12,502 nucleotides of DNA from the IMG/VR virus record IMGVR_UViG_2698536647_000010, one strand, 5' to 3'. The DNA comes from a virus. Its lineage: Duplodnaviria > Heunggongvirae > Uroviricota > Caudoviricetes. The translations under genes and the position numbers were made by a program. Shown piece after piece: positions 1 through 12,502 of this stretch (its first letter is position 1; every line of letters begins with the position of its first letter). The notes beneath the pieces are model-generated. The model was not told the DNA's origin, ran no database searches, and saw only the letters and a program-made list of their open reading frames with translations.

Positions 1-270
1 TTACTCCCTGACAGGATTTGCAGGCCACTCAATATCAGGTACAGTTGATGTATCAACACGATTCAACAATACCCGATATTTATTCCATGCCTCCAGCAAC
101 GATCTTTCTTCCTCCGTTGCGATTTCCAGATCTACAGCATCCTGCAGTGGCGCAATATACTCACTGAATTCCTGGATGTAGAACTGTGTGGTGACGGTCT
201 TCCAGCCATTCGGCTCTTGCTGTATCGAAGCATACCAGGCTATTTCAATATCGCTATGCTGCGGCAGCAT
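1..270 (-). CDS. Short Tfa-like ORF (89 aa); C-terminal ~55 aa resemble the conserved C-terminus of lambda-type tail fibre assembly protein, N-terminal ~35 aa do not (truncated or chimeric tfa copy)
   Basis: Complete minus-strand ORF from ATG at 268-270 to TAA at 1-3. C-terminal segment [19 protein letters not shown]...[11 protein letters not shown]...DIEWP is shared with the tfa copy at 1049-1483. No convincing Shine-Dalgarno, so expression is uncertain. Confidence 0.45.
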
Positions 271-297
271 TTAACCCCTTGTAATTCATCGCCATAA

Positions 298-326
298 TTG
301 ATTTAATTCACAAATAAAACTATAAC
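298..326 (+). promoter_or_regulatory. Candidate sigma70 promoter (TTGATT - 17 nt - TATAAC) upstream of the methyltransferase cassette
   Basis: -35-like hexamer at 298-303 and -10-like hexamer at 321-326 with a 17-nt spacer, in an AT-rich intergenic region; followed by GGTGA (329-333) and ATG at 339. Sequence pattern only. Confidence 0.3.
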
Positions 327-409
327 ATGGTGAAATCAATGAAAAAAACACAGATGATGGGGCTAAAATTTACACACCACTTACCCTAAAGCTTTATGAC
401 TGGTGGGTT

Positions 410-994
410 TTGGGAGTATCAAATCGGCTTGCATGGGGATGTCCTACAAAGGAACACCTTCTTCCACACTTTCTGGAACATGTAGGTAACAACCATCTGG
501 ATATTGGTGTTGGAACTGGGTTTTACCTTACTCACGTACCTGAGAGTAGTCTGATATCTTTAATGGATTTGAACGAAGCTAGCCTGAACGCGGCATCTAC
601 AAGGGCTGGGGAATCAAAAATTAAACATAAAATTAGCCATGATGTTTTTGAACCTTATCCCGCGGCGTTACATGGTCAATTTGATTCCATTTCCATGTTT
701 TACCTTCTTCACTGCCTGCCTGGAAATATATCTACAAAAAGCTGTGTAATACGCAATGCGGCGCAGGCCTTAACTGACGATGGAACTCTATACGGAGCCA
801 CAATTCTTGGCGATGGAGTTGTGCACAATAGCTTCGGTCAAAAACTGATGCGCATTTACAATCAGAAAGGCATCTTTTCAAACACAAAAGATTCCGAAGA
901 AGGCTTAACACATATACTCTCAGAGCATTTCGAGAATGTTAAAACCAAGGTTCAAGGTACTGTAGTAATGTTTTCCGCTTCAGGGAAAAAATAG
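410..994 (+). CDS. Class I SAM-dependent methyltransferase (Rossmann fold), body of the ORF; true start probably upstream at ATG 339 in another frame (see findings)
   Basis: Translation contains the motif I glycine-rich loop LDIGVGTGFY followed by an acidic residue about 20 aa later (LMDLNEA), typical of SAM-binding methyltransferases. No DPPY/NPPY-type motif was seen, so a DNA amino-methyltransferase is not indicated. The ORF is open from 326 but has no in-frame ATG/GTG before the TTG at 410. Confidence 0.6.
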   Translation: MGVSNRLAWGCPTKEHLLPHFLEHVGNNHLDIGVGTGFYLTHVPESSLISLMDLNEASLNAASTRAGESKIKHKISHDVFEPYPAALHGQFDSISMFYLLHCLPGNISTKSCVIRNAAQALTDDGTLYGATILGDGVVHNSFGQKLMRIYNQKGIFSNTKDSEEGLTHILSEHFENVKTKVQGTVVMFSASGKK

Positions 995-1001
995 CATCCA
1001 A

Positions 1002-1034
1002 CCGCAGCACGTTCTTGCTTAAGACGTGCTGCGG
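1002..1034. terminator. GC-rich hairpin between convergent genes (possible bidirectional terminator)
   Basis: Perfect 11-bp inverted repeat CCGCAGCACGT (1002-1012) and ACGTGCTGCGG (1024-1034) with an 11-nt loop, lying between the methyltransferase stop (994) and the tfa stop (1049). Flanking A/T runs are weak. Confidence 0.35.
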
Positions 1035-1048
1035 CATAATCCCAATGA

Positions 1049-1547
1049 TTACTCCCTGACAGGGTTCGTAGGCCACTCAATATCAGGTGCAGTTGATGTA
1101 TCAACACGGTTCAGCAACACCCGATATTTTTTCCAGGCTTCCAGCAATGAGGTTTCTTCCTCCGTTGCGATCTCCAGATCTACAGCATCCTGAAGTGGCG
1201 CTATATGCTCACTGGCTACCTGCATCAGGCTGTTTTTTGTTTCTTCCGCCTCCCGGATCCGGAACAGTTTTTCTGCTTCCGTATCCTTCACCCAGGCTGT
1301 GCCGTTCCACTTCTGATATTCCCCTTCCGGCGATAACCAGGTGACATTTTCCGGTAACGAGCCAAGTTCAGAAATAAATAACGCGTCGCCGGAAGCCACG
1401 TTCTGGCGGTGCAATATCGGTACTGTTTGCTGGCAGACCTGTATGAGGCGGAATATATGCGTCACCTTCACCAATAAATTCATTAGTTCCGGCCAGCAGA
1501 TTATAAATTTTTATGGTCCGTGGTTGTTCACTCATTCTGAATGCCAT
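1049..1547 (-). pseudogene. tfa: Tail fibre assembly protein (lambda Tfa family), disrupted by an internal deletion/frameshift
   Basis: ATG at 1545-1547 overlaps the stop of the upstream fibre gene (TAATG arrangement). From it, [48 protein letters not shown] matches the recalled lambda/Rac Tfa N-terminus, then the frame stops after 59 codons (TGA 1368-1370). The conserved Tfa C-terminus ([13 protein letters not shown]...APDIEWP) continues in a different frame as the 1049-1483 ORF. About 29 aa of Tfa appear to be missing at the junction. Confidence 0.65.
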
Positions 1548-2566
1548 TATGCAAGCCTCACAATATAGTTAAATGCGATGTTTTTGACGGTGTTTTCCGC
1601 GTTACCAGCAGCGTTAACGGTGATGGTATGTCCATGTGAACCAATCGCAACCGAGTGCGTATGCGCACCAATACCTACAGTATGTGCATGTGCGCCAGAA
1701 CTTGCTGCAGTACCAGACAGCGAGTGGGTATGAGCACCTGCTGACTGTGTCTGAATACGTTGATAATACGATCTACTGGAAGAAGTCCCCGGGCTTACTT
1801 GATACTGTGAATCCTTGACATAAGTGAACCCACCGCCATCATAAAATGCTAACGCAGAACCGCCGCCTCCTGGCCAACGAATACCATTACCATGAGTATG
1901 AGCACCGGCAGACCCCGTAGAGCCACTCAGACTGTGCGTATGCGCCCCGGTGTTATTCGTGGATTTAGTGCCGTAATCAAACGACGATGTGGTTTTCGTC
2001 CCCAAATCCGTACTGGATGCGCTGGCGCTGTGGGTATGCGATTTAATGCCGTCCTGTTCCTGAGACAATACGGCCCGACCACTGGCAGGTTTGCCCTTAA
2101 TCGTCCAGCCACGCATATCAGGGATCACGCCTGACGGATAAGCCGCTGCAAGTTTCGGGTATGCAGATTTGTCAAAAGTCTGCCCCTGCATCAGGGCATA
2201 GCCAGACGGAACGGTATCTGATGGCCACGGGATTGGTGCACCGACTGGATAAAACTCTGCAGGAGGATGAGCCGAGGTGTAAAGCTGCGCCCACGGCGAC
2301 CAGTTTGCGTCGGTCGTATCCCGTCGTGAACGAATAAATGCCGGAGCATGAGCACCGCTTGTACCACTCCAGCCGATGAGTAACTCACCCTCTCCTACTG
2401 CGGTTACACCAGTGAGATGAAGCACATTACCATAGGTTGTTGGGTATCTTGTTGCCCCAGTTTTAGTTTCCAGTTGTCGTAACGTCTCGCGCCCACTCTG
2501 GCGTACGAGTTCAACAACCTGCCCTTTAATTTTTTCCCGCTCTTCTTGTGTAAATGCTTTTGCCAT
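1547..2566 (-). CDS. stf: Side tail fibre protein, C-terminal receptor-binding portion only (339 aa), with its own RBS and ATG
   Basis: Translation carries the His-rich GAHTHS / GAHAHT repeat region and the terminal ...[29 protein letters not shown] characteristic of lambdoid Stf C-termini. ATG at 2564-2566 is preceded by GGAGG. Full-length Stf proteins are roughly 1000 aa or more, so the N-terminal two-thirds are absent. Confidence 0.75.
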
Positions 2567-2581
2567 AAGCGCCTCCGGCAA

Positions 2582-3343
2582 TCACTTTTCCGATACAACA
2601 CGGCGGGAAGAATCAGTAATCTGTCGAACAATATCCCGGTGCTTGTTCAGCTCCCGCAGCGCGGCGCAGACTCGCTCCCACTTCTGAACATCACTTTTCG
2701 CCCTGCGCAGCGCCAGGTTTGCCCTGCGAAGGGACGGAAAAATCAGCTCATCTGCTTGCGTTTCGGTAAACGATGGCAACGGCTGCACAATGTCCGCCAC
2801 AGTTTCTGTTTTAATTTCTTCCTGTGTTGCTGCGTCCCGGACTGGTAACGCAGCACCTGCTGGCTGAGGAAAGGCTTTACCATCCGTTTCCGCTACGGAT
2901 GCAGCTTCCGGCTCTGCCGGTAAATCAGCGCCCGGTATGCAGTAACGAAATTTACCGTCCTGATTAACGCGAATCAGACGACCTTTACTGATTGCCATTG
3001 CCAGCTTTGAAGCCACTTTGCGTGATGTGATGCCGAAAAACGTAGCCAGTTCATCCGCCGTTTGTGATCCGCGTTGTTCAATCGTTGCGGTTAAATCGCA
3101 CTCTGAGATTTTCGCTACTGTTGCTGTGGTGGTTTCTTCCGGCAGTTCTGCCTGCGCTGGCTGTTCCTGCTGAACGTTGTTATCAGCCACACGCCAGGTG
3201 TACGCGCTTTTATCAACGAAACCAGCCTTTTTCAGTTCCCATAGTTCGTTCAGCACTTCTTCACGACTGATATCAAGTCGCGCAGCCAGCTCTACCGACG
3301 TGGCTTTTCCCATCGCTTTCAGTGCGTCAAAAACAGTCTCCAT
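2582..3343 (-). CDS. Hypothetical protein (253 aa) with two winged-helix-like segments; position corresponds to the ren/nin region downstream of the P-like gene
   Basis: ATG at 3343 is preceded by GGGAGG at about 7 nt. Segments [30 protein letters not shown] and [33 protein letters not shown] look like HTH/winged-helix motifs. No family recognised. Confidence 0.55.
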
Positions 3344-3375
3344 AAATTTCCTCCCGGTAAAAATTACTTCTCAAC

Positions 3376-3837
3376 TCAAACAAACCCAGCCGCTTTCCGG
3401 CGCTCATATTCCTGTTTCAGCAGCTCAATTGGCGTTGGCCCCGACGGGCGTTTGGGTGCCGCCAGTTGTCGCCGGACTGGCGGAACGCTCAGGCCGTTAC
3501 TAACATGCTTTGCCCATTTCGTCAGCTGCCGTTCTGCAAGCCGTTTTAATTCCCCTTCGGTCATCTGGCGCTCAATCCCCTTTGAACGCATCTCAAGGCA
3601 AATGTGATACAGCACAGGCTGAGGCCACGGGTACTTATCACTTCCGTCATATCGCCAGGACTCATTGCGCCAGCGGCGGTACTCCTCCATCACAGCATCC
3701 ACCGTCAGACCGAATGGATTGGCTCCGCTTTCCGAAATCAGTGCCACAAACTCAGCCAGGTCCGGAGGCCATGTTTCACCCGCCCGGCAGCGGTCCATGC
3801 ACTGGCGGCAGACCTGTCGGATTTGCTGCTCAGTCAT
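3376..3837 (-). CDS. Replication protein P-like (lambda P family helicase loader), 153 aa
   Basis: Local similarity to recalled lambda P: a YPW-containing segment (DKYPWPQPVLYHI) and TEGELKRLAERQL resembling P's TDAELRRKAADEL. Start taken as the internal ATG at 3835-3837, which overlaps the upstream gene's stop (ATGACTGA), rather than the track's 4041 start that lies inside the preceding gene. No Walker A motif, so not DnaC-type. Confidence 0.55.
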   Translation of the reverse strand: MTEQQIRQVCRQCMDRCRAGETWPPDLAEFVALISESGANPFGLTVDAVMEEYRRWRNESWRYDGSDKYPWPQPVLYHICLEMRSKGIERQMTEGELKRLAERQLTKWAKHVSNGLSVPPVRRQLAAPKRPSGPTPIELLKQEYERRKAAGFV

Positions 3838-4870
3838 CGCGCCAATCTGTGCAATCCAGAGCTTCGAAGGTGCGGCCCCGTTCTTCTGGGTCCAGCGGTT
3901 CGAATAAACCTCCCCCATGAGTTCCCACAGCTTCCAGACCGTTTCCGTCGCTGATAAATCCGTTTTCACGTTCCCACTGCTCACGTGCTGCCCGAATTTC
4001 CTGAACTGCCCGTGATGCGGTGCCACCTGGTGCTGCTGCATGGTTTACCCCCTTGCTGACTGGCTTAACCTGCGCCCTGACGTGATTTACGTGACGGGCG
4101 AATTTCTGCTCCCACTGAACCTGCGTGAAAACTTTCCCCTCCGCTGCCCAGTAGTCCCGGAAAGCGGCAAGTTCAGCAGGTGTAAATTCCGGCTCCGGCA
4201 AAGCCATCCCCCACAACGCAGCCCGTCGTCGAAAATCCGGCGACGGATGCCAGTCATCGACCATCGGAAATTTCCCGATGGGTTCGCTCAGTCCATCCAG
4301 GGATGCAGGTTCTGCTGCCTGCAACGGCGTACCACTCGACTCACTGGTCGGAGCACTCTCGCGCACGTGCGCGTTATGTGTGGGGTTTAATTCTTTATCT
4401 GTATCTTTATCTGTCGTGACTCGTCGTGACATGTCGTGACATATGCGTGACTCGTCGTGACACCCCTCATTCTGTTTTCGTAATTTTTCCCTCTCGCGCT
4501 GCGCTCTCTTGCGCTCTGCCGGGGATTTCGCGGTTTGTGAAACGTTGCCATTGTCCTCTTTCAGTACCTGGCGTTTTTCCCATCCGGTGATTAAATCTCC
4601 ATCAAGTACCCGCCCCTGCATTGCCTGTAAAATTGAATCAATTACTTCTTCCGTCACATCAAGCGCACTTGCTAAATCTTCCGTCGTGACATCAATGTGA
4701 CCACGTAGTGACACGCCGTGACATGTCGTGACATTTCGTGACGCGCTCACCAGAAGGTGGATATACACTGCCATCACTGTTGCAATTGGCTGCCCTGACA
4801 CCCTGGCAATTGTTCGCCACTTAGGGTCATTTGGCATGTCATGCCATAATCTGAGCCAGGCGTTAGCCAT
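3830..4870 (-). CDS. Replication initiator (lambda O-like organiser) with a DnaT-like C-terminal region; contains candidate origin iterons within its coding sequence
   Basis: ATG at 4868-4870 preceded by GAGGTGA. Gene position is after the Cro-like and YdaT-like genes and before the P-like gene. Two clusters of phased GTGAC repeats lie inside the gene, as in lambda where ori sits inside O. C-terminal segment DWHPSPDFRRRAALWGMALPEPEFTPAELAAFRDYW resembles the DnaT/primosomal C-terminal type found on phage replication proteins. Confidence 0.6.
   Translation of the reverse strand: MANAWLRLWHDMPNDPKWRTIARVSGQPIATVMAVYIHLLVSASRNVTTCHGVSLRGHIDVTTEDLASALDVTEEVIDSILQAMQGRVLDGDLITGWEKRQVLKEDNGNVSQTAKSPAERKRAQREREKLRKQNEGCHDESRICHDMSRRVTTDKDTDKELNPTHNAHVRESAPTSESSGTPLQAAEPASLDGLSEPIGKFPMVDDWHPSPDFRRRAALWGMALPEPEFTPAELAAFRDYWAAEGKVFTQVQWEQKFARHVNHVRAQVKPVSKGVNHAAAPGGTASRAVQEIRAAREQWERENGFISDGNGLEAVGTHGGGLFEPLDPEERGRTFEALDCTDWRDD
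4411..4462. repeat. Iteron cluster A: five GTCGTGAC-type repeats phased at 10-11 bp, adjacent to an AT-rich tract
   Basis: GTGAC cores start at 4416, 4426, 4436, 4447 and 4457. Immediately to the left is the AT-rich 4388-4413 with TCTTTATCTG twice (4392-4401, 4404-4413). Confidence 0.6.
4683..4742. repeat. Iteron cluster B: six (C)GTGAC(A) repeats phased at 10-11 bp
   Basis: GTGAC cores start at 4686, 4697, 4708, 4718, 4728 and 4738. Same core as cluster A, about 225 bp away, inside the O-like gene. Confidence 0.6.
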
Positions 4871-4941
4871 ACTCACCTCTTCTGATACCGAATCTTTTTA
4901 CTCACAAATTGCCGGAAGTGATCCGGTATGAATATTGCGAG

Positions 4942-5367
4942 TCAATGCACAGCCACAATATTTCCTGCAGGGCCACCACGATTCATCTGGTTGAAACCAG
5001 CGATCGCCACTGCGACAAAATCATCAGCGTCTCTCACCAGTCGTTCCCGCGTCTCCACCAGCTCCCGAAAATAAGCTGAACTGTGGCTGCGCATTCGGGC
5101 CACCAGCAGAGGCGGCATTGCTTTTTCGATCGCTGGTAACAACGCCTGAATTTTTTTAACCGCATCAGGAGTGTCTTTCTCCACCCAGCGGAAAATTTTC
5201 TGGGTATTGCGAGCCAGGGCTTCCGGATGGCTGTCGTCATATAATTCCGGGAACGTCATACCAAGCTCAAAATAAGCCCGGGTTATTTCAGCTGCCGGAA
5301 CTTTTTCACCGTCCGGATGCGCCCAGGCATTCATCGCCATGCGGATGTGCTCATGCCTGATTTTCAT
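4942..5367 (-). CDS. YdaT-like protein (proposed CII-type early regulator of Rac-type prophages), 141 aa
   Basis: Begins MKIRHEHI..., with size and position directly after the Cro-like gene (17-nt overlap), matching the ydaS-ydaT arrangement as recalled. Family assignment from memory, not searched. Confidence 0.45.
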   Translation of the reverse strand: MKIRHEHIRMAMNAWAHPDGEKVPAAEITRAYFELGMTFPELYDDSHPEALARNTQKIFRWVEKDTPDAVKKIQALLPAIEKAMPPLLVARMRSHSSAYFRELVETRERLVRDADDFVAVAIAGFNQMNRGGPAGNIVAVH

Positions 5368-5626
5368 GAATCAACTCCGATGCATTTGGTGTGTTAGCCT
5401 TGAATCCAACAGGTAAGCCGTCGGTTGGATTCGGGTAAATATCAGGCCGGAGTTCATGAGGTGTAACCTCGAAATTCGTTACTTCAGCAACACGTAATGC
5501 TTTTTCAGGGCTGAATCTTTCATAGCCCCCCAGCACTCGACTTACATGCACCTGAGATAAACCCGTTAGCTTCCCAAACTGTAGCTGGGTGATATGTTTC
5601 TCTTTTAAATAGTCTCTTAAGTTCAT
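5351..5626 (-). CDS. Cro/DicC/YdaS-family small HTH regulator (91 aa)
   Basis: Divergent from the repressor gene. HTH-like segment QLQFGKLTGLSQVHVSRVL and a C-terminal ELRPDIY motif resemble YdaS/DicC-type proteins. Start taken at ATG 5624-5626 (MNLRDYL...) with an AAGG-type SD, rather than the TTG at 5632. Confidence 0.6.
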   Translation of the reverse strand: MNLRDYLKEKHITQLQFGKLTGLSQVHVSRVLGGYERFSPEKALRVAEVTNFEVTPHELRPDIYPNPTDGLPVGFKANTPNASELIHENQA

Positions 5627-5656
5627 AGCCAACCTTCTACGTTATGTCTCGAGCAA

Positions 5657-5685
5657 ATATTAGCCCCGCTAATTTTAAAGATCAA
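5657..5685 (-). promoter_or_regulatory. Candidate early promoter for the Cro-like gene (TTGATC - 17 nt - TAATAT on minus strand) overlapping a 13-bp perfect palindrome (candidate operator)
   Basis: On the minus strand the -35 is at 5680-5685 and the -10 at 5657-5662 with a 17-nt spacer. Palindrome TTAGC-CCC-GCTAA at 5660-5672 lies in the spacer/-10 region. A TGATAATAT extended -10-like element at 5702-5709 faces the repressor gene. Confidence 0.4.
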
Positions 5686-5733
5686 TAGCCAGACTATCTT
5701 TGATAATATTGGTAAAACAAATAAACTCTATGT

Positions 5734-6195
5734 ATGAAAAAAACACGCGAAGTGATTGCAACTCCAGAAGCGAGCAAGAATTTAAAAGCCGCATGGAATG
5801 CAAGAAAAAAAGAGCTGAAGCTGACTCAAGAGCTGGCGGCTGAGTTGTTGGGATTCGAATCTCAAGGCACCGTTAGCCAGTATCTGAACGGCAAGATACC
5901 GGTAAATACCGACGCTGCGCTAAAATTTGCGGCTCTGTTAAAGGTAAAACCAGAGGACATTCGAGAAGACCTTAAAGACTTAATGAATTATGTAAGATCA
6001 TCAGATACTTATGATGATAACTTTTCAGGCAAAGGATGGAGGCTGGTCAATGAAGAACAGGCAGAGTTACTTAACCTCTTCGAGATTCTACCTGCGTCAG
6101 AAAAAGCCAAACTCCTTAACCAGCTACGTGGACTAAACAAGCTCTACGAGGAAGCCTTCGAGAACATGCTGGCACTAAAGAAACGTAACCAGTAG
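5734..6195 (+). CDS. Prophage immunity repressor, DicA/RacR-type XRE-family HTH protein (153 aa)
   Basis: HTH segment LTQELAAELLGFESQGTVSQYLNGK; C-terminal ELLNLFEILPASEKAKLLNQL resembles recalled DicA (ELLELFNALPESEQ). Divergent from the Cro-like gene and followed by the ydfABC-dicF-dicB cluster. No SD before the ATG, so possibly leaderless or weakly translated. Confidence 0.8.
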   Translation: MKKTREVIATPEASKNLKAAWNARKKELKLTQELAAELLGFESQGTVSQYLNGKIPVNTDAALKFAALLKVKPEDIREDLKDLMNYVRSSDTYDDNFSGKGWRLVNEEQAELLNLFEILPASEKAKLLNQLRGLNKLYEEAFENMLALKKRNQ

Positions 6196-6221
6196 CCACC
6201 GCTCACTACCCCATCCACAAC

Positions 6222-6251
6222 AAAAAAACCGACGTCTTAGTCGGTTTTTTT
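6222..6251 (+). terminator. Rho-independent terminator, symmetric and potentially bidirectional
   Basis: AAAAAAA-CCGAC-GTCTTA-GTCGG-TTTTTTT: a short GC stem flanked by A7 and T7 runs, directly after the repressor stop. Confidence 0.65.
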
Positions 6252-6348
6252 GTGCCATAACTTCTGCAAATCAGCTGTATAACTAATATTTTTCCCTTGA
6301 AAAAACATTTACATAGTTACCAAATCAAAAATATCATACGCCATACTA

Positions 6349-6377
6349 TTGACTTAAAATATCCGCGTTACTAATAT
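6349..6377 (+). promoter_or_regulatory. Candidate sigma70 promoter for the ydfABC-dicF-dicB operon (TTGACT - 17 nt - TAATAT)
   Basis: Near-consensus hexamers with a 17-nt spacer about 70 nt upstream of the ydfA-like start; corresponds in position to the dicB operon promoter of Qin. Confidence 0.45.
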
Positions 6378-6448
6378 TTCTATCAAGAACAGCACGGCGC
6401 TGTAGGTTTTAGTTCCGCCACCCGGCGTTAAGGGGAAATGAGGTCAGC

Positions 6449-6604
6449 ATGGATACTATCGAGCTTGGCAACAACGAATCTCTGGTGTACGGCGTGTTTC
6501 CCAACCAGGACGGCACATTCACCGCGATGACGTATACCAAAAGCAAAACGTTTAAAACCGAAAATGGTGCCCGTCGCTGGCTGGAAAGAAACTCAGGTGA
6601 GTGA
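6449..6604 (+). CDS. ydfA: YdfA-like small protein (51 aa)
   Basis: ORF not in the supplied track (below its size cut-off), translated by hand: MDTIELGNNESLVYGVFPNQDGTFTAMTYTKSKTFKTENGARRWLERNSGE. GAGGT lies 4 nt before the ATG. Size and order (51 aa, then 42 aa, then 72 aa after the repressor) match the recalled dicA-ydfA-ydfB-ydfC layout. Confidence 0.65.
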   Translation: MDTIELGNNESLVYGVFPNQDGTFTAMTYTKSKTFKTENGARRWLERNSGE

Positions 6605-6605
6605 T

Positions 6606-6734
6606 ATGGATTTCGACACAATCATGGAAAAGGCTTACGAAGAATACTTCGAAGGCCTTGCCGAAGGCGAAGAAGCTCTCAGCTTCAGTGAGTTTAAACA
6701 GGCGCTTTCCAGCTCGGCAAAATCTAACGGCTGA
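6606..6734 (+). CDS. ydfB: YdfB-like small protein (42 aa)
   Basis: Hand-translated: MDFDTIMEKAYEEYFEGLAEGEEALSFSEFKQALSSSAKSNG. Its start lies 1 nt after the ydfA-like stop, consistent with translational coupling. Confidence 0.6.
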   Translation: MDFDTIMEKAYEEYFEGLAEGEEALSFSEFKQALSSSAKSNG

Positions 6735-6763
6735 TAAGCGAAGCAGCACCGCGAGGAATCAGT

Positions 6764-6982
6764 ATGCAGAAACGAGAACCCGTCATCATCGCGCCAGACT
6801 ATACCGATGATGAACTTTATGAGTGGATGCGCCAGAAAATTAATGCAGCGCAGGATCTGAAATGGGCCAATGAAGCCAGGACTAAGCAGGCTGAAAATCT
6901 GTCCGCTCTGGAGCAGGATATCACCAGGCTGGAAAAAGCAGCGGCATTAAGCATTGCCAGAATGATTACATACCCACGTTAA
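6764..6982 (+). CDS. ydfC: YdfC-like protein (72 aa)
   Basis: 72-aa ORF with GAGG about 7 nt upstream of the ATG. Assigned by size and synteny with ydfA/ydfB and dicF/dicB; the sequence itself was not independently recognised. Confidence 0.55.
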   Translation: MQKREPVIIAPDYTDDELYEWMRQKINAAQDLKWANEARTKQAENLSALEQDITRLEKAAALSIARMITYPR

Positions 6983-7004
6983 TAGCTAACCAACGAGGCT
7001 AATA

Positions 7005-7325
7005 ATGGAATTTAAAGATTTACCAATGCCATTCCAGGAAATGGCAGCGAATGTGGTTCGCTCTCAACTGGCGACTCTTGACCTGAGTACCGTAGAAAAA
7101 GAAACCATCGACAATATATCCGGTAACGTACGCCGAGCCTTTATCGGGCTGTACGAAGAGAAGCAGCTCTCTGATAACCAGGATTTACATGAAAAATACT
7201 TCCTGGATCTAATGGACCTCATTGATAAGGGGTTTGGCTTGTTAATGAAAAAGAAAGGGATTCGAATAGAACCCCTTGAAAATTACTTTGCAACAAAAAG
7301 CATTAATTCTTTTGATTCAAAATAA
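7005..7325 (+). CDS. Hypothetical protein (106 aa), unrecognised; first gene of a convergent pair between ydfC and dicF
   Basis: GAGG lies 6 nt before the ATG and the gene starts 22 nt after the ydfC-like stop, in the operon orientation. Acidic, probably helical protein. No homolog recalled. Confidence 0.55.
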   Translation: MEFKDLPMPFQEMAANVVRSQLATLDLSTVEKETIDNISGNVRRAFIGLYEEKQLSDNQDLHEKYFLDLMDLIDKGFGLLMKKKGIRIEPLENYFATKSINSFDSK

Positions 7326-7578
7326 GAGAATTAATTACAGACTTAACATGCTCTTTCTCATGATTGAAGCTCTCATGATTGAAAGTGCCGGGTTGAAGCG
7401 AGTCGATATAATCAACAAGACTCTGTCGTACGACTTCATTTTTATCCATAACAGATGCAAGAAATGAAATTGCTAAAAGAGTTATATCACTACGCGCCGC
7501 AGCATGTTGCAATGCTTTATCAAAATTATTAATCTGGCGTATCAGGGAGTTAATGATTTCATCATTTTCAGTCGACAT
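7303..7578 (-). CDS. Hypothetical protein (91 aa), unrecognised; antisense to the dicB operon, 3' end overlaps the preceding gene by 23 bp
   Basis: Strong SD AGGAGGG 5 nt before ATG (7576-7578); product MSTENDEIINSLIRQINNF... The longer track ORF (to 7911) has an Arg/Pro-rich, non-protein-like N-terminal extension, so the internal start is preferred. Confidence 0.5.
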   Translation of the reverse strand: MSTENDEIINSLIRQINNFDKALQHAAARSDITLLAISFLASVMDKNEVVRQSLVDYIDSLQPGTFNHESFNHEKEHVKSVINSLILNQKN

Positions 7579-7849
7579 TTCACCCTCCTGAGGGTTGGTG
7601 ATTAAGGAGTTCTCCACGGGTGAGGTGGAGTGCGTGCGCCGGACACGGGTGAGCATCCGGCACTGACAGTTTACTGAAAGGATATTTCCCTGAAAAGTCA
7701 GACCATAACGCGAAAGCGCACGGCGAGGTAGCTGGTTCATAGATAGCCTGTCGTTAAATTTTCGTCGATCGTGCGCTTCCGGTTGTGGCAATCCGCGAAA
7801 TGGCGCGGCGGTAAGTATGGCGGGGTTATTCCTTCCCCGTTGAGGACAC

Positions 7850-7889
7850 CGGGTTGTCAGGTTGACCATACGCTTAAGTGACAACCCCG
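7850..7889 (+). other. Hairpin about 24 nt upstream of DicF (possible processing structure of the DicF precursor)
   Basis: Inverted repeat GGGTTGTCA (7851-7859) and TGACAACCC (7880-7888) with a loop of about 20 nt. Confidence 0.3.
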
Positions 7890-7912
7890 CTGCAACGCCC
7901 TCTGTTATCAAT

Positions 7913-7965
7913 TTTCTGGTGACGTTTGGCGGTATCAGTTTTACTCCGTGACTGCTCTGCCGCCG
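7913..7965 (+). ncRNA. dicF: DicF small RNA (cell-division inhibitor sRNA that targets ftsZ mRNA)
   Basis: TTTCTGGTGACGTTTGGCGGTATCAGTTTTACTCCGTGACTGCTCTGCCGCC followed by a T-run (7966-7970) matches the recalled E. coli DicF sequence almost base for base. It lies about 175 nt upstream of dicB, as in Qin. Confidence 0.85.
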
Positions 7966-8139
7966 TTTTTAAAGTGAATTTTGTGATGCGGTGAATGCGG
8001 CTGAGCGCACGCGGAACAGTTAAAAACAAAAACAGTGTTATGGGTGGATTCTCTGTATCCGACGTTAATTGTTAACTGGTTAACGTCACCTGGAGGCACC
8101 AGGCACTGCATCACAAAATTCATTGTTGAGGACGCGATA

Positions 8140-8328
8140 ATGAAAACGTTATTACCAAACGTTAATACGTCTGAAGGTTGTTTTGAAATTGGTGTCACTA
8201 TCAGTAACCCTGTATTTACTGAAGATGCCATTAACAAGAGAAAACAAGAACGGGAGCTATTAAATAAAATATGCATTGTTTCAATGCTGGCTCGTTTACG
8301 TCTGATGCCAAAAGGATGTGCACAATGA
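8140..8328 (+). CDS. dicB: DicB, cell division inhibitor (MinC-dependent), 62 aa
   Basis: Translation MKTLLPNVNTSEGCFEIGVTISNPVFTEDAINKRKQERELLNKICIVSMLARLRLMPKGCAQ matches recalled DicB. The track ORF starts upstream at 8035 from a non-ATG start; the ATG at 8140 is taken as the true start. Confidence 0.9.
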   Translation: MKTLLPNVNTSEGCFEIGVTISNPVFTEDAINKRKQERELLNKICIVSMLARLRLMPKGCAQ

Positions 8329-8516
8329 ATTCAGCATTTGCGCTTGTTCTGACAGTTTTTCTTGTTTCCGGAGTGCCAGTTGATATTGCAGTCAGTGTTC
8401 ACAGGACAATGCAGGAGTGTATGACTGCAGCAACCGAACAGAAAATTCCCGGTAACTGTTACCCGGTCGATAAAGTTATTCACCAGGATAATATCGAAAT
8501 CCCGGCAGGTCTTTAA
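8325..8516 (+). CDS. ydfD: YdfD, small membrane/lysis-type protein of the dicB operon, 63 aa
   Basis: MNSAFALVLTVFLVSGVPVDIAVSVHRTMQECMTAATEQKIPGNCYPVDKVIHQDNIEIPAGL matches recalled YdfD. The ATG overlaps the dicB stop (ATGA). Confidence 0.85.
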   Translation: MNSAFALVLTVFLVSGVPVDIAVSVHRTMQECMTAATEQKIPGNCYPVDKVIHQDNIEIPAGL

Positions 8517-8609
8517 AACAGTTCCGTAATAAATATCCGGTTTCATTCTTATATGCCAGCAATGGCAGGGATTTGTTCATCCTTAAATCTGTCATGAGGT
8601 TAAAACAAA

Positions 8610-11081
8610 ATGAGTAAAGTCTTTATTTGCGCCGCCATTCCTGACGAACTGGCAACAAGGGAAGAAGGCGCTGTGGCTGTAGCCACAGCCATTGAAGCTG
8701 GCGACGAACGCCGTGCTCGAGCAAAATTTCACTGGCAATTCCTGGAACATTATCCGGCTGCTCAGGACTGCGCTTATAAATTTATTGTCTGCGAGGATAA
8801 ACCAGGCATACCCCGCCCTGCCCTCGATTCATGGGATGCTGAATATATGCAGGAAAACCGCTGGGATGAGGAGTCTGCTTCTTTTGTCCCGGTTGAGACT
8901 GAATCCGATCCGATGAACGTCACTTTTGACAAGCTGGCCCCTGAAGTACAGAACGCTGTCATGGTTAAGTTCGACACATGTGAAAACATCACCGTTGATA
9001 TGGTTATTAGCGCACAGGAATTGTTGCAGGAAGACATGGCAACATTCGACGGACATATCGTTGAAGCGTTGATGAAAATGCCAGAAGTTAACGCCATGTA
9101 TCCGGAGCTTAAGTTGCACGCCATTGGGTGGGTTAAGCATAAATGTATTCCTGGTGCTAAATGGCCCGAAATTCAGGCAGAGATGCGCATCTGGAAAAAA
9201 CGTCGCGAAGGTGAACGCAAGGAAACCGGAAAATACACGTCTGTTGTTGATCTCGCCCGCGCCAGAGCCAATCAACAGTACACTGAAAATTCAACAGGAA
9301 AAATCAGCCCGGTCATTGCTGCCATTCATCGCGAATACAAGCAGACATGGAAAACACTGGATGACGAACTGGCCTACGCTCTCTGGCCTGGTGATGTGGA
9401 TGCCGGAAACATTGACGGCAGCATCCATCGCTGGGCAAAAAATGAAGTTATCGACAACGACCGCGAAGACTGGAAGCGTATCTCGGCATCAATGCGCAAA
9501 CAGCCTGATGCCCTTCGCTACGACCGCCAGACTATTTTTGGCCTTGTCCGTGAACGTCCGATCGACATTCACAAAGACCCTGTGGCACTGAACAAATACA
9601 TTACTGAATACCTGACTACAAAGGGCGTGTTTGAAGATGAAGGAAGAAATCAGAGCGCAACTGATACTCTCTCGTCGCCAGTACCAGAAACTGATGCAGT
9701 GGAAACGGCAATTCCGGGCAACGAAAAAACCGAATGCGAAGTGGAAGACGAACCATCTGTAGAGCGTGAGGGACCGTTCTACTTCCTTTTCACCGATAAG
9801 GACGGCGAAAAATACGGTCGCGCAAACAAACTTTCTGGTCTGGAAAAAGCACTGGCCCTGGGAGCTACGGAAATCACAAAAGAGGAATACTTCGCACGTA
9901 AAAACGGCACGTACTCAGGTTCACAACAAAATACTGGTGCATCTGACACGATCGCACAACCAGAGCCGGTAAAAGTTACCGCTGACGAAGTAAACAAAAT
10001 TATGCAGGCAGCCAATATCAGCCAGCCTGACGCCAATAAGTTGCTTGCTGTATCACGTGGTGAATTTGTTGCAGGGATTAGCGACCCGAATGATCCGAAA
10101 TGGGTGAAGGGGATTGAAACCCGCGATTCAGTGAATCAGAACCAGCAAGAAACGGAACAGAACGGCCAGAAAGCGGAACAAAACAGCCCAAATGCGTTAC
10201 AAAACGAGCCAGAAACGAAACAGCCTGAACCAGTGGCGCAACAGGAAGTGGAAAAAGTCTGCACCGCCTGCGGTCAAAGCGGTGGCGGCAACTGCCCTGA
10301 TTGTGGCGCGGTGATGGGTGACGCAACATACCAGGAAACATTCGATGAAGAGAATCAGGTTGAAGTTCAGGAAAATGATCCGAAGGAAATGGAAGGCGCT
10401 GAACATCCACACAAGGAGAATGCTGGTAGCGCTCAGGATCACGCCAGCGATAGTGAAACTGGCGAGACGGCAGATCCCTTAATTGCGATGAACGGTCATC
10501 ACGTTATCACATCCACCAGCAGAATGTGGCACCACATGATGATCGACCTTGAAACCATGGGAAAAAATCCCGATGCCCCGCTTATCTCAATAGGTGCAAT
10601 ATTTTTCGATCCGCAAACCGGAGATATGGGGCCGGAATTTAGTAAGACCATCGATATGGATACTGCTGGCGGAGTCATTGATCGTGGCACCATTAAATGG
10701 TGGCTTAAGCAATCACGGGAGGCGCAATCTGCCATTCTGACCGATGAAATCCCGTTAGATGATGCACTGCTGCAATTGCGGGAATTTATCGACGAAAACT
10801 CCGGCGAATTTTTTGTTCAGGTCTGGGGAAATGGAGCCAACTTCGACAACACGATTTTGCGCCGTTCATACGAACGGCAGGGGATCCCCTGCCCATGGCG
10901 TTACTACAACGATCGCGATGTACGCACAATCGTTGAGCTGGGGAAAGCCATAGACTTCGATGCCAGAACGGCTATTCCATTCGAAGGTGAGCGCCATAAT
11001 GCACTTGATGACGCCCGTTACCAGGCAAAATACGTTTCAGTTATCTGGCAAAAACTGATCCCGAATCAGGCTGATTTTTAA
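8610..11081 (+). CDS. Large (823 aa) prophage exonuclease-like protein: YdfE-like N-terminal region, central acidic/Gln-rich linker with a CxxC...CxxC zinc ribbon, C-terminal DEDDh (DnaQ-like) 3'-5' exonuclease domain
   Basis: GAGG about 10 nt before the ATG. C-terminal motifs MMIDLETMG (Exo I, D-x-E), GNGANFDNTIL (Exo II) and HNALDDARYQA (Exo III, H-x4-D). Zinc ribbon CTACGQSGGGNCPDCG. The N-terminus MSKVFICAAIPDELATREEG... resembles what I recall of K-12 YdfE, which is a fragment there. Sits in the recombination-gene position between the kil-like genes and xis. Confidence 0.75.
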   Translation: MSKVFICAAIPDELATREEGAVAVATAIEAGDERRARAKFHWQFLEHYPAAQDCAYKFIVCEDKPGIPRPALDSWDAEYMQENRWDEESASFVPVETESDPMNVTFDKLAPEVQNAVMVKFDTCENITVDMVISAQELLQEDMATFDGHIVEALMKMPEVNAMYPELKLHAIGWVKHKCIPGAKWPEIQAEMRIWKKRREGERKETGKYTSVVDLARARANQQYTENSTGKISPVIAAIHREYKQTWKTLDDELAYALWPGDVDAGNIDGSIHRWAKNEVIDNDREDWKRISASMRKQPDALRYDRQTIFGLVRERPIDIHKDPVALNKYITEYLTTKGVFEDEGRNQSATDTLSSPVPETDAVETAIPGNEKTECEVEDEPSVEREGPFYFLFTDKDGEKYGRANKLSGLEKALALGATEITKEEYFARKNGTYSGSQQNTGASDTIAQPEPVKVTADEVNKIMQAANISQPDANKLLAVSRGEFVAGISDPNDPKWVKGIETRDSVNQNQQETEQNGQKAEQNSPNALQNEPETKQPEPVAQQEVEKVCTACGQSGGGNCPDCGAVMGDATYQETFDEENQVEVQENDPKEMEGAEHPHKENAGSAQDHASDSETGETADPLIAMNGHHVITSTSRMWHHMMIDLETMGKNPDAPLISIGAIFFDPQTGDMGPEFSKTIDMDTAGGVIDRGTIKWWLKQSREAQSAILTDEIPLDDALLQLREFIDENSGEFFVQVWGNGANFDNTILRRSYERQGIPCPWRYYNDRDVRTIVELGKAIDFDARTAIPFEGERHNALDDARYQAKYVSVIWQKLIPNQADF

Positions 11082-11145
11082 TGTTCAACCCCGGTCGTTG
11101 CCCACCAGCTATAGTGGCGGCGACCATGATTAGCGAACGACGCTC

Positions 11146-11394
11146 ATGGCAAGACTTATTCTGCTCACTGAGTGGGCAAAAGAGGAATTCAGTGAACCGG
11201 TCCCTACTCCGAGTACGTTAAGTAAATACGCTAAAGCCGGAATGATATTTCCTCTCCCCAAAAAAGTTGGGAGACGCTGGCGAGTGGATCCGCAAGCTCG
11301 CTTTGTCGGAATGGTAAACAAGCCGGAGGTGATCGCCACAGATCACCCTGCTTTGAAGAGGATACTGGAAGATGGCGCGCCCGCGAAAATATAA
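11146..11394 (+). CDS. xis: Excisionase-like protein (82 aa)
   Basis: Small basic ORF immediately upstream of the integrase and overlapping its start by 23 nt (lambda-like xis-int arrangement); RWRVD-type segment. No clear SD. Confidence 0.6.
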   Translation: MARLILLTEWAKEEFSEPVPTPSTLSKYAKAGMIFPLPKKVGRRWRVDPQARFVGMVNKPEVIATDHPALKRILEDGAPAKI

Positions 11395-12502
11395 AACCGA
11401 TGTTCCGGGATTATCTCCGTATTTTGACAAAAGAAATAACAAAGTTTACTGGCGTTACAGGCATCCCATAACAGGCAAAAATCACGGTCTCGGCAGTATT
11501 GACCAGAAACTGGCAGAAACTATTGCAGCAGAAGCGAACAGCCGTCTTGCCCGGCAGCAAATGGAACAAATGCTCAGTCTGCAGGAGAAAATTATTAGTG
11601 ATACCGGCGGTTCATCAACCGTTACCATTTTTCTGAATAATTACAGAAAAATTCAACAGGAAAGATATGAAAACGGCGAGATCAAACTCAACACGCTGAA
11701 ACAGAAAGCGGCCCCTCTCAGGGTATTTGATGAACGTTTTGGCACCAGACCGTTAGATGCCATAACCGTAAAAGATGTGGTATCAGTACTGGAAGAGTAC
11801 AAGGCCAGAGGACATAACAGAATGGGACAAATTTTCAGGAAGGTACTGATCGATGTTTTCCGGGAAGCTCAGCAAACGGGCGATGTCCCGCCAGGCTTTA
11901 ACCCTGCAGAATCGGCAAAAAAACCGCAGGTGCGGATATCAAGACAGCGACTGACTTTTGATGAGTGGATGATGATTTATAACGCAGCGGAAAAGGATGG
12001 TTACTTTTTACAGCGCGGTATGCTGCTGGCACTGATGACAGGCCAGCGCCTTTCAGATATTTGCAAAATGCAATTTTCGGATATCCGGGATGGTTATCTT
12101 CATGTCGAACAGCAAAAAACAGGAACCCGGATTGCCATCCCTCTGGCTCTGCGTTGCGATAAATTAAATCTCACCCTAGATGATGTGGTGTCATCCTGCC
12201 GCGATTGCGTTCTTAGTCCGTGGCTATTGCACCACCATCACGCGAAAGGGACAGCTAAGCGCGGCGGGATGGTTAAGCCAGCAACATTAACCGTTGCATT
12301 TAAAAAAGCCCGGGATTCTGTGGATTACAACTGGCGTGCTAATGGCACCCCACCCTCTTTCCATGAGCAGAGATCTTTATCAGAGCGATTGTTCAGAGAG
12401 CAGGGGGTTGATACCAAAATTTTGCTGGGCCATTCGAATCAAAAAATGACCGATATTTACAACGACGCACGCGGTAAGGAATGGAAAAAACTGGTCATTT
12501 GA
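11372..12502 (+). CDS. int: Tyrosine recombinase / lambda-family phage integrase (376 aa), apparently intact
   Basis: Catalytic signature present: TGQRLSDICKMQFSDI (Arg I), HEQRSL (His-x-x-Arg), LLGHSNQKMTDIY (His and nucleophile Tyr), aligning with lambda Int VVTGQR / HELRSL / LLGH...Y. Ends with a stop at 12500-12502; the att site would lie beyond the window. Confidence 0.9.
   Translation: MARPRKYKTDVPGLSPYFDKRNNKVYWRYRHPITGKNHGLGSIDQKLAETIAAEANSRLARQQMEQMLSLQEKIISDTGGSSTVTIFLNNYRKIQQERYENGEIKLNTLKQKAAPLRVFDERFGTRPLDAITVKDVVSVLEEYKARGHNRMGQIFRKVLIDVFREAQQTGDVPPGFNPAESAKKPQVRISRQRLTFDEWMMIYNAAEKDGYFLQRGMLLALMTGQRLSDICKMQFSDIRDGYLHVEQQKTGTRIAIPLALRCDKLNLTLDDVVSSCRDCVLSPWLLHHHHAKGTAKRGGMVKPATLTVAFKKARDSVDYNWRANGTPPSFHEQRSLSERLFREQGVDTKILLGHSNQKMTDIYNDARGKEWKKLVI

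Follow-up and report, generated by a model that had tools for sequence, protein, structure and literature searches.

Side tail fibres of the T4 gp37 and lambda Stf type need an adjacent chaperone, gp38 or Tfa, for trimer folding (PMC9659904 and references there), and the fibre tip together with this chaperone forms a module that is exchanged among unrelated phages (PMC9659904). In laboratory lambda (PaPa), a frameshift has separated the C-terminal end of stf as orf-314 (PMC9659904), and recombination can put this part in place of the receptor-recognising end of T4 gp37 (Montag et al. 1989, cited in PMC3945230 and PMC9659904). In the cryptic prophage Qin of E. coli K-12, a deletion of head and tail genes left a C-terminal Stf fragment, StfQ (b1547, 320 aa), followed by a tfa gene in the order nohA'-stfQ-tfaQ. 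Red-beta is mainly responsible when lambda recombines with the homologous stf-tfa regions of Qin and Rac and gains DNA from them, which happens at about 2e-6 per phage (PMC3945230). The locus described here, in which the start of a DUF977 gene is joined to the end of an stf gene, is a new instance of this well-known type of prophage-decay product, and nohA'-stfQ-tfaQ is its closest precedent. The reading that we favour, with a probability of roughly 0.85, is that the locus is an unselected scar of prophage decay: an illegitimate deletion of ~40 kb would have joined DUF977' in frame to 'stf, and no function of the product would have been selected.

The likeness to Qin extends beyond the fibre gene, since the element has a Qin-like early region with a DicA-like repressor, ydfA/B/C-like genes, DicF and dicB. 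StfQ has almost the same extent as the fibre part studied here. The two proteins are 82% identical over 299 aa, residue 26 of StfQ aligning with residue 41 of the chimera, and the 5' limit of StfQ lies only about 25 codons further upstream. The breakpoints differ. In Qin, the left one falls in the DNA-packaging gene nohA, so that the nin region, Q and the lysis genes stay, whereas here it falls in DUF977, just past the replication genes, so that nin, Q and lysis genes are gone, and the fibre fragment has gained a foreign 41-aa N-terminus with a Shine-Dalgarno sequence and ATG. In addition, a head-domain segment (aa ~224-275), presumed from sequence comparison to be the specificity region, diverges from both T4 and K-12 StfQ; receptor specificity therefore probably differs from that of StfQ. 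Orf-314 resembles the fibre part in being a C-terminal Stf frame of ~300 aa apart from the tail-attachment part, but it results from a 1-nt frameshift in an otherwise complete phage and involves neither a 40-kb deletion nor a gene fusion.

The window, that is, the whole stretch of 12,502 nt that we analysed, corresponds exactly, in reverse complement, to positions 65-12566 of locus L001, which is a contig of 145 kb from the draft assembly GCA_001268505.1. Over 5 kb of chromosomal flank, this contig matches E. coli with 100% identity; ompW lies on one side of the element and yciE-yciF-yciG-trpA on the opposite side. A direct repeat of 20 bp without mismatches, with one copy at ompW and the second in front of yciE at a distance of 13,260 bp, delimits an att-flanked remnant of 13.3 kb that sits in the 3' end of ompW. 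According to the gene calls of the source contig, int, xis and the early genes are present in the element, no lysis, packaging, head or tail families are represented, and the element holds no holin, endolysin or spanin gene. It is a defective (cryptic) lambdoid prophage.

At the same ompW site, a relative spanning about 53 kb is found in E. coli UPEC-774U and in many other genomes; therefore, about 40 kb have been lost here. The two share an int-xis-exonuclease-dicB-repressor-cro-ydaT-O-P-DUF1627 module, with 97.3% identity to the UPEC-774U-type relative over window positions 12502..2456. Between DUF977 and attR, the relative continues with nin-type genes, hokD, DUF968, rusA, Q, a DNA methyltransferase gene and tRNAs, followed by holin, lysozyme, Rz-like, terminase, capsid, portal and tail genes, J, lom and stf. 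The first-pass annotation had stated that the nin region, Q, lysis, terminase, head and tail genes and the Stf N-terminus are missing from the window, and both the contig's gene calls and this relative bear it out.

The fusion gene is a minus-strand ORF of 339 aa at 2566..1547 (ATG at 2566-2564, TAA at 1549-1547) whose ATG follows 15 nt after the TGA of the preceding gene (2584-2582). These coordinates agree with the first description of the ORF, which had it start at a GGAGG-preceded ATG at that distance from the previous stop. The preceding gene had been taken for the gene in the ren/nin position; it is a DUF1627 gene, and the ren position belongs to the DUF977 gene itself.

Table 1. Features of the fusion locus and its surroundings, in window coordinates.
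Feature	Position	Strand	Basis
tfa (tail fibre assembly chaperone) gene, disrupted	1049..1547	-	Caudo_TAP match; 86-bp deletion
Last ~298 codons and stop of a lambda Stf/T4 gp37-type side tail fibre gene	1547..2444	-	megablast
Needle/head region, aa 177-313, containing all seven HxH motifs	1628..2038	-	2XGF and StfQ alignments
Collar domain, aa 109-156	2099..2242	-	Pfam PF07484, 2XGF alignment
Deletion junction, TA in codon 41	2445..2446	-	three-way alignment and codon positions
Codons 1-40, from DUF977/'Ren-like' gene	2447..2566	-	PF06163, PHROG 142, 55989 alignment
Shine-Dalgarno GGAGG, 5 nt before ATG, native to DUF977 gene	2572..2576	-	read from sequence
DUF1627 gene, 253 aa, directly upstream of fusion	2582..3343	-	Pfam PF07789, E 2.2e-94
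Early-right operon ahead of fusion: YdaS (cro-like), YdaT, DnaT-domain O-like, P, DUF1627	2582..5632	-	gene calls, Pfam
Divergent DicA-like repressor gene	5734..6195	+	NCBIfam DicA subfamily, weak, below cut-off; Pfam HTH_3

We examined the origin of the N-terminus. Residues 1-41 of the chimera match positions 1-41 of the 134 of the Pfam DUF977 profile (PF06163) with 29.1 bits, above the Pfam cut-off of 22.1 bits, and they also match PHROG 142, 'Ren-like exclusion protein'. Compared with the annotated DUF977 protein of E. coli 55989, 38 of the 41 residues are identical. At the nucleotide level, the identity to E. coli 55989 is 99% from inside DUF1627 into DUF977 and ends at window position 2445. 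In intact relatives, the DUF977 gene likewise follows the DUF1627 gene after a 15-nt spacer, and in E. coli 55989 this spacer, with its GGAGG and the ATG behind it, agrees with the window base for base, indicating that the start signals were inherited rather than made by the junction. The first-pass annotation had credited the fibre fragment with a ribosome-binding site and ATG of its own; both are native to the DUF977 gene. It had also noticed that the short N-terminal stretch does not look like fibre sequence, which is right as to its nature, although the stretch measures 41 residues rather than ~25 codons.

The relation to the DUF977/PHROG 142 family of lambdoid prophages is thus a partial one: the first 41 residues, the Shine-Dalgarno sequence and the place right after DUF1627 are shared, but only 41 of about 134-140 residues remain (41 of 140 in the 55989 protein), making this a fragment and not a member of the family in a functional sense. 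Such a truncated domain is unlikely to fold. Two ideas about this end of the gene were set aside. A mis-assembly at 2570-2585 would fall in DUF1627-DUF977 intergenic sequence that is native there, and the true junction is repeated in a second assembly. Full-length stf genes beginning with the same N-terminus are not what the comparisons return: that N-terminus is DUF977, and the alignment with full-length Stf does not begin before about residue 795.

The remainder of the protein, residues 42-339, is fibre (PHROG 295 tail fibre, E 1.5e-144). Within it, the Collar domain scores E 1.9e-12 and 47.4 bits, against a Pfam cut-off of 24 bits. Residues 105-339 align end to end with the T4 gp37 tip (PDB 2XGF, residues 785-1026; E 7e-83), with which they have the collar, the seven HxH motifs and the C-terminal end in common. 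All seven motifs are kept (aa 177, 209, 223, 279, 293, 302 and 311), and the conserved C-terminal end is present, the alignment reaching the last residue of 2XGF. The head domain here differs from 2XGF by an insertion of about 20 residues and by its divergent sequence. A further difference from T4 gp37 is that the present protein belongs to the side fibre of a siphovirus, of which nothing N-terminal to the last ~64 residues of the shaft is left; the module kept thus consists of about 64 shaft residues, the collar, the seven HxH motifs and the full C-terminus. The gp37 fragment that the tip matches, whose chains intertwine in an obligate trimer, was crystallised in trimeric form, and by homology to it the tip of the chimera may form a homotrimer.

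The fibre part is 91% identical at the amino-acid level to a prophage Stf of 1056 aa, over residues 795-1056 of the latter, and full-length relatives of this size are annotated as 'prophage tail fiber N-terminal domain-containing protein'. In megablast searches, stf genes from thousands of E. coli prophages match the window, with matches beginning at ~2454-2446, and the stf part is 96-98% identical to these alleles. What the chimera represents of Stf is residues ~795-1056 (~758 onwards for Qin-type alleles), and the tail-attachment N-terminal domain is missing. Because that domain is absent, any product would be unable to become a virion component.

Aligning the window with the DUF977 parents and the stf parents places the breakpoint. 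The DUF977 parent reads GGGGAAACAAGATAtctgatg, the stf parent reads caatggcTACCCAACAACCTATGG and the window reads GGGGCAACAAGATACCCAACAACCTATGG; the only bases common to both parents are TA, at window positions 2446-2445, in codon 41 (TAC), which specifies Tyr in both parental genes. The deletion endpoint had been sought at 2560-2600; when the alignment was run, the junction fell at 2446-2445, and the DUF1627-DUF977 intergenic region proved to be native. A TA microhomology of 2 bp is the signature of a single illegitimate deletion. We also considered site-specific recombination of the Pin/Gin type. The window contains no invertase gene, and a gix-like query, which is a weak test, found no site at <=3 mismatches; this cause was rejected.

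We propose the following course of events. The ancestor at ompW would have had the order int-xis-exo-dicB/DicF-repressor on one side and cro-ydaT-O-P-DUF1627-DUF977-...-stf-tfa on the other. One illegitimate deletion, its ends having only TA in common, would then have removed about 40 kb, with its left end in codon 41 of the ren-position DUF977 gene and its right end ~298 codons before the end of stf. The join would be in frame by chance, for which the prior expectation is 1 in 3. Since the join is in frame, the DUF977 Shine-Dalgarno sequence, its ATG and 41 codons head an ORF for a complete collar-needle-head tip. The suggestion that the junction had created an expressible stand-alone domain thus holds in part: there was a large deletion, the fibre fragment is fused to the early/replication region, and the ORF is intact and looks translatable, but the start site was not created by the junction. 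Because the DUF977 start and 41 codons are borrowed, the product is a DUF977'-'Stf chimera and not a clean stand-alone domain.

The junction is rare. It is on record on two contigs, from the draft assemblies GCA_001268505.1 and GCA_001268685.1, which are 100% identical over 11,165 nt, and the exact chimeric protein is known from these two only. None of 5,426 complete E. coli genomes has a match spanning the junction, and exact-pattern scans found it neither in GTDB species representatives nor in JGI metagenome contigs. A 114-aa query across the junction returned no other DUF977-Stf fusion among the 120 matches listed; the query's own cluster is missing from that list too, so that the search is not exhaustive. 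The deletion is a recent, clone-restricted event, leaving no time for selection on the chimera, and we saw no sign of such selection. In other E. coli genomes, independent terminase'-'stf joins keep 607-662 aa. A hotspot of truncation was considered and dropped, with only two clearly independent events at ~300 aa (here and in Qin).

Would the fusion be expressed? It stands in sixth place in the early-right operon, whose genes are separated by short gaps. A scan for promoters found no minus-strand promoter-like site between the cro-like gene and the fusion, with counts at or below shuffle expectation, and terminator-like signals ahead of the fusion in the operon were not above chance; the scan is uninformative beyond showing that there is no obvious private promoter. 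Because no promoter-like site follows the cro-like gene, the fusion is the last gene of this operon. The DicA-like repressor is expected to keep the operon off, and off would be the resident state if Rac and Qin are a guide. The fusion would be transcribed only as the final cistron of this repressor-controlled operon, and its expression is only potential. We detected no signal peptide or hydrophobic segment in the chimera (maximum Kyte-Doolittle(19) 1.05), whose N-terminus is charged. The product would be cytoplasmic, and since it has no export signal or membrane segment and the element has no lysis genes, there is no obvious route to the surface.

Folding of the fibre part would also depend on the Tfa chaperone, which is broken in cis in GCA_001268505.1. 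The tfa ATG overlaps the stop of the fusion in the sequence TAATG. An 86-bp deletion between window positions 1402 and 1401 shifts the frame of tfa, so that what remains is an N-terminal ORF of 59 aa and a C-terminal part in another frame. In complete genomes, both halves of tfa are found with 100% identity and the 86 bp are present, and in the sister assembly GCA_001268685.1 tfa is undeleted as far as the contig end. Because the 86 bp are present there, the lesion is either very recent or an assembly error, and because the sister gene is undeleted to the contig end, some members of the lineage may still have an intact chaperone gene; other prophages could provide Tfa in trans as well.

Of the interpretations offered in the first-pass annotation, that of a dead remnant fits best, the junction being confined to two identical draft assemblies, and we infer that the fusion has never been selected for a function. 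The two further lesions of the right-end block, the 86-bp loss in tfa and a -1 frameshift in the methyltransferase gene, also speak for decay. Some features go against a mere scar: the join is in frame, a good Shine-Dalgarno sequence and ATG are kept, and the fibre part is a clean functional module. Its 5' limit also lies near that of StfQ, a coincidence of two events with roughly p = 0.05 under uniform breakpoints, which is weak.

The alternative that survives best, though we consider it improbable, is that the stf'-tfa cassette has been retained as a recombination reservoir, to the benefit of recombining phages or of hosts through them, the chimeric ORF being irrelevant. Recombination of lambda with the stf-tfa remnants of Qin and Rac has been shown experimentally (PMC3945230), pairs of tip and chaperone are exchanged among unrelated phages (PMC9659904), and 96-98% identity to the stf alleles of thousands of E. 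coli prophages provides ample homology. However, this is a passive property that any such remnant has, there is no evidence of selection for the deletion, the tfa lesion would be transferred along with the tip, and the element is restricted to a clone. The diversification reservoir proposed earlier is accordingly plausible, given the recombination of lambda with Qin and Rac (PMC3945230), but it is not new, needs no expression and is not specific to the fusion. Under the decay-scar reading, too, stf'-tfa DNA may serve incoming lambdoid or T-even phages as a passive donor for homologous recombination, which would be the only likely consequence of the locus.

Quite unlikely is a functional stand-alone receptor-binding protein, produced by the cell and assembled into trimers, that would mask the receptor, serve as a decoy or contribute to defence or adhesion in some other way. 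The in-frame ORF is intact with a strong Shine-Dalgarno sequence, it encodes a complete tip module homologous to a fragment that forms a stable trimer, tfa is translationally coupled to it through the TAATG overlap and may be intact in the sister strain, and the extent of the fragment is similar to that of K-12 StfQ. Against these points stand the lack of a signal peptide or membrane segment in the protein and of lysis genes in the element, the position in an early operon that is under repressor control and in which the fusion has no private promoter, the frameshift of tfa in GCA_001268505.1, the confinement of the junction to one clone, and an N-terminus that is a truncated DUF977 domain (41 of 134 positions) and unlikely to fold. 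A free Stf tip is not known to act as an exclusion factor. Receptor masking, which had been raised as a speculative role, is disfavoured by the same absence of export signals and lysis genes and by the broken tfa.

A related version, for which we see equally little prospect, holds that, once the operon is derepressed, the chimera is made alongside Tfa (from an intact gene in some of the lineage, or from elsewhere in trans) and folds into a soluble, biologically active trimer of the receptor-binding tip, the similar extent of StfQ reflecting recurrent retention of free tips. Such a tip could, for example, be released from dying cells and occupy the receptors of clonemates, or it could join or disturb the fibres of a co-resident lambdoid phage. 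Were the fragment shown to be expressed and active, no earlier prophage remnant would be known to make use of a free fibre tip, but none of our results suggests such activity.

Least probable of all is an assembly artefact in which the DUF977 gene of one prophage was wrongly joined to the stf of another: both families are repeated across E. coli genomes, the assemblies are short-read drafts, the sister contig ends inside tfa and the 86-bp tfa deletion occurs in one assembly only, but the join is identical in two separate assemblies, once within a 145-kb contig, the contig flanks (ompW and yciE-trp) are the two sides of one att site with a matching 20-bp repeat, and there is no repeat k-mer to collapse on because the two sides of the join share only 2 bp.

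Returning to the decay scar, we regard the locus as a clean and precisely mapped case in which what appears to be one illegitimate deletion strips all late genes and leaves the early region and the fibre-tip cassette, the part with which incoming phages are known to recombine. Its importance beyond annotation is slight, the element being a 13-kb defective prophage at ompW. The ORF should be annotated as a DUF977'-'stf fusion remnant, and neither as a tail fibre nor as a novel protein.

Finally, tandem prophages at ompW in SCU-125 and NCCP15648 carry the right-end block in undeleted form, in the order stf-tfa-methyltransferase-tfa'-DUF4376'-ompW'. In the right-end block of the present element, we also noted an apparent -1 frameshift in the methyltransferase gene, at whose 5' end an A8 tract (window positions 342-348) reads A7.

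The O-like gene, which encodes a replication initiator with a DnaT domain, contains two clusters of tandem ATGTCACGNC repeats separated by ~290 bp. Judged from sequence, these clusters look like origin iterons, so the prophage remnant may still hold an origin together with the replication genes O and P and the integration and excision genes int and xis. The early-left region of the window resembles that of Qin, with dicB and the DicF sRNA neighboured by ydfA/B/C-like genes and a DicA-like repressor.

Features located in the window
Feature	Window position	Strand	Remark
O-like gene	3830-4876	minus	DnaT-domain replication initiator
10-bp tandem repeat clusters, n=2	4695-4744, 4403-4442		inside O-like gene
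DicF sRNA	7914-7965	plus	Rfam RF00039, 72.5 bits
dicB gene	8140-8328	plus	DicF sRNA upstream
86-bp deletion	1401-1402	minus	inside tfa (1049-1547); frameshifts tail-fibre assembly gene
Class I SAM methyltransferase gene	326-994	plus	A-tract at 342-348, 5' end

Comparison of window 2444-2566 with K-12 stfQ (L012:4886-5848) places the right breakpoint of the independent Qin deletion within ~25 codons of that of the deletion that formed the DUF977'-'stf junction in the window. The gene exceeds 1000 codons, and both breakpoints fall shortly upstream of its conserved tip module; since there are only two events, their nearness may be a coincidence.

The gene for the tail-fibre assembly chaperone, tfa, carries a lesion of its own. 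On both sides of the 86-bp deletion the sequence matches, at 100% identity, intact tfa genes from complete genomes, where the 86 bp are kept. The contig from the sister assembly (L002, GCA_001268685.1), identical to the window over the preceding 11,165 nt, is without the deletion and ends 72 nt into the 86-bp segment. The 86 bp were thus either lost very recently, in a secondary deletion, or dropped in error during assembly. Inside tfa, in the half that encodes the C-terminus, there is also a full-length Rfam match to IS009 (RF02111, 224.5 bits; window 1092-1290, minus strand), an "sRNA candidate" family whose model was apparently built on a tfa gene segment.

The right-end block (window 1-1225; L001:11342-13281) contains the C-terminal region of tfa twice, as direct repeats (window 1225-1029 and 177-1; 197 nt, 89% identical), and between them, on the opposite strand, the methyltransferase gene. 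Because its A-tract is A7, whereas relatives (SCU-125, PRO_A-1374) have A8, the annotated ATG is out of frame, and the gene is therefore reduced to a 194-aa TTG-initiated ORF (410-994). The missing A may mark a true frameshift, or come from homopolymer slippage or a sequencing error. The MT-tfa'-DUF4376'-ompW' block beside yciE is common to 467 complete E. coli genomes, and has the look of a scar that has persisted at the ompW att site. In one of the 467, PRO_A-1374-6M-A (100% identical), another lambda-like prophage lies to the left of the block and contains an invertible fibre segment. In E. coli SCU-125 and NCCP15648, the ompW att site holds two lambdoid prophages in tandem, with the int of one placed immediately next to the right end (stf-tfa-MT-tfa'-ompW') of the other.
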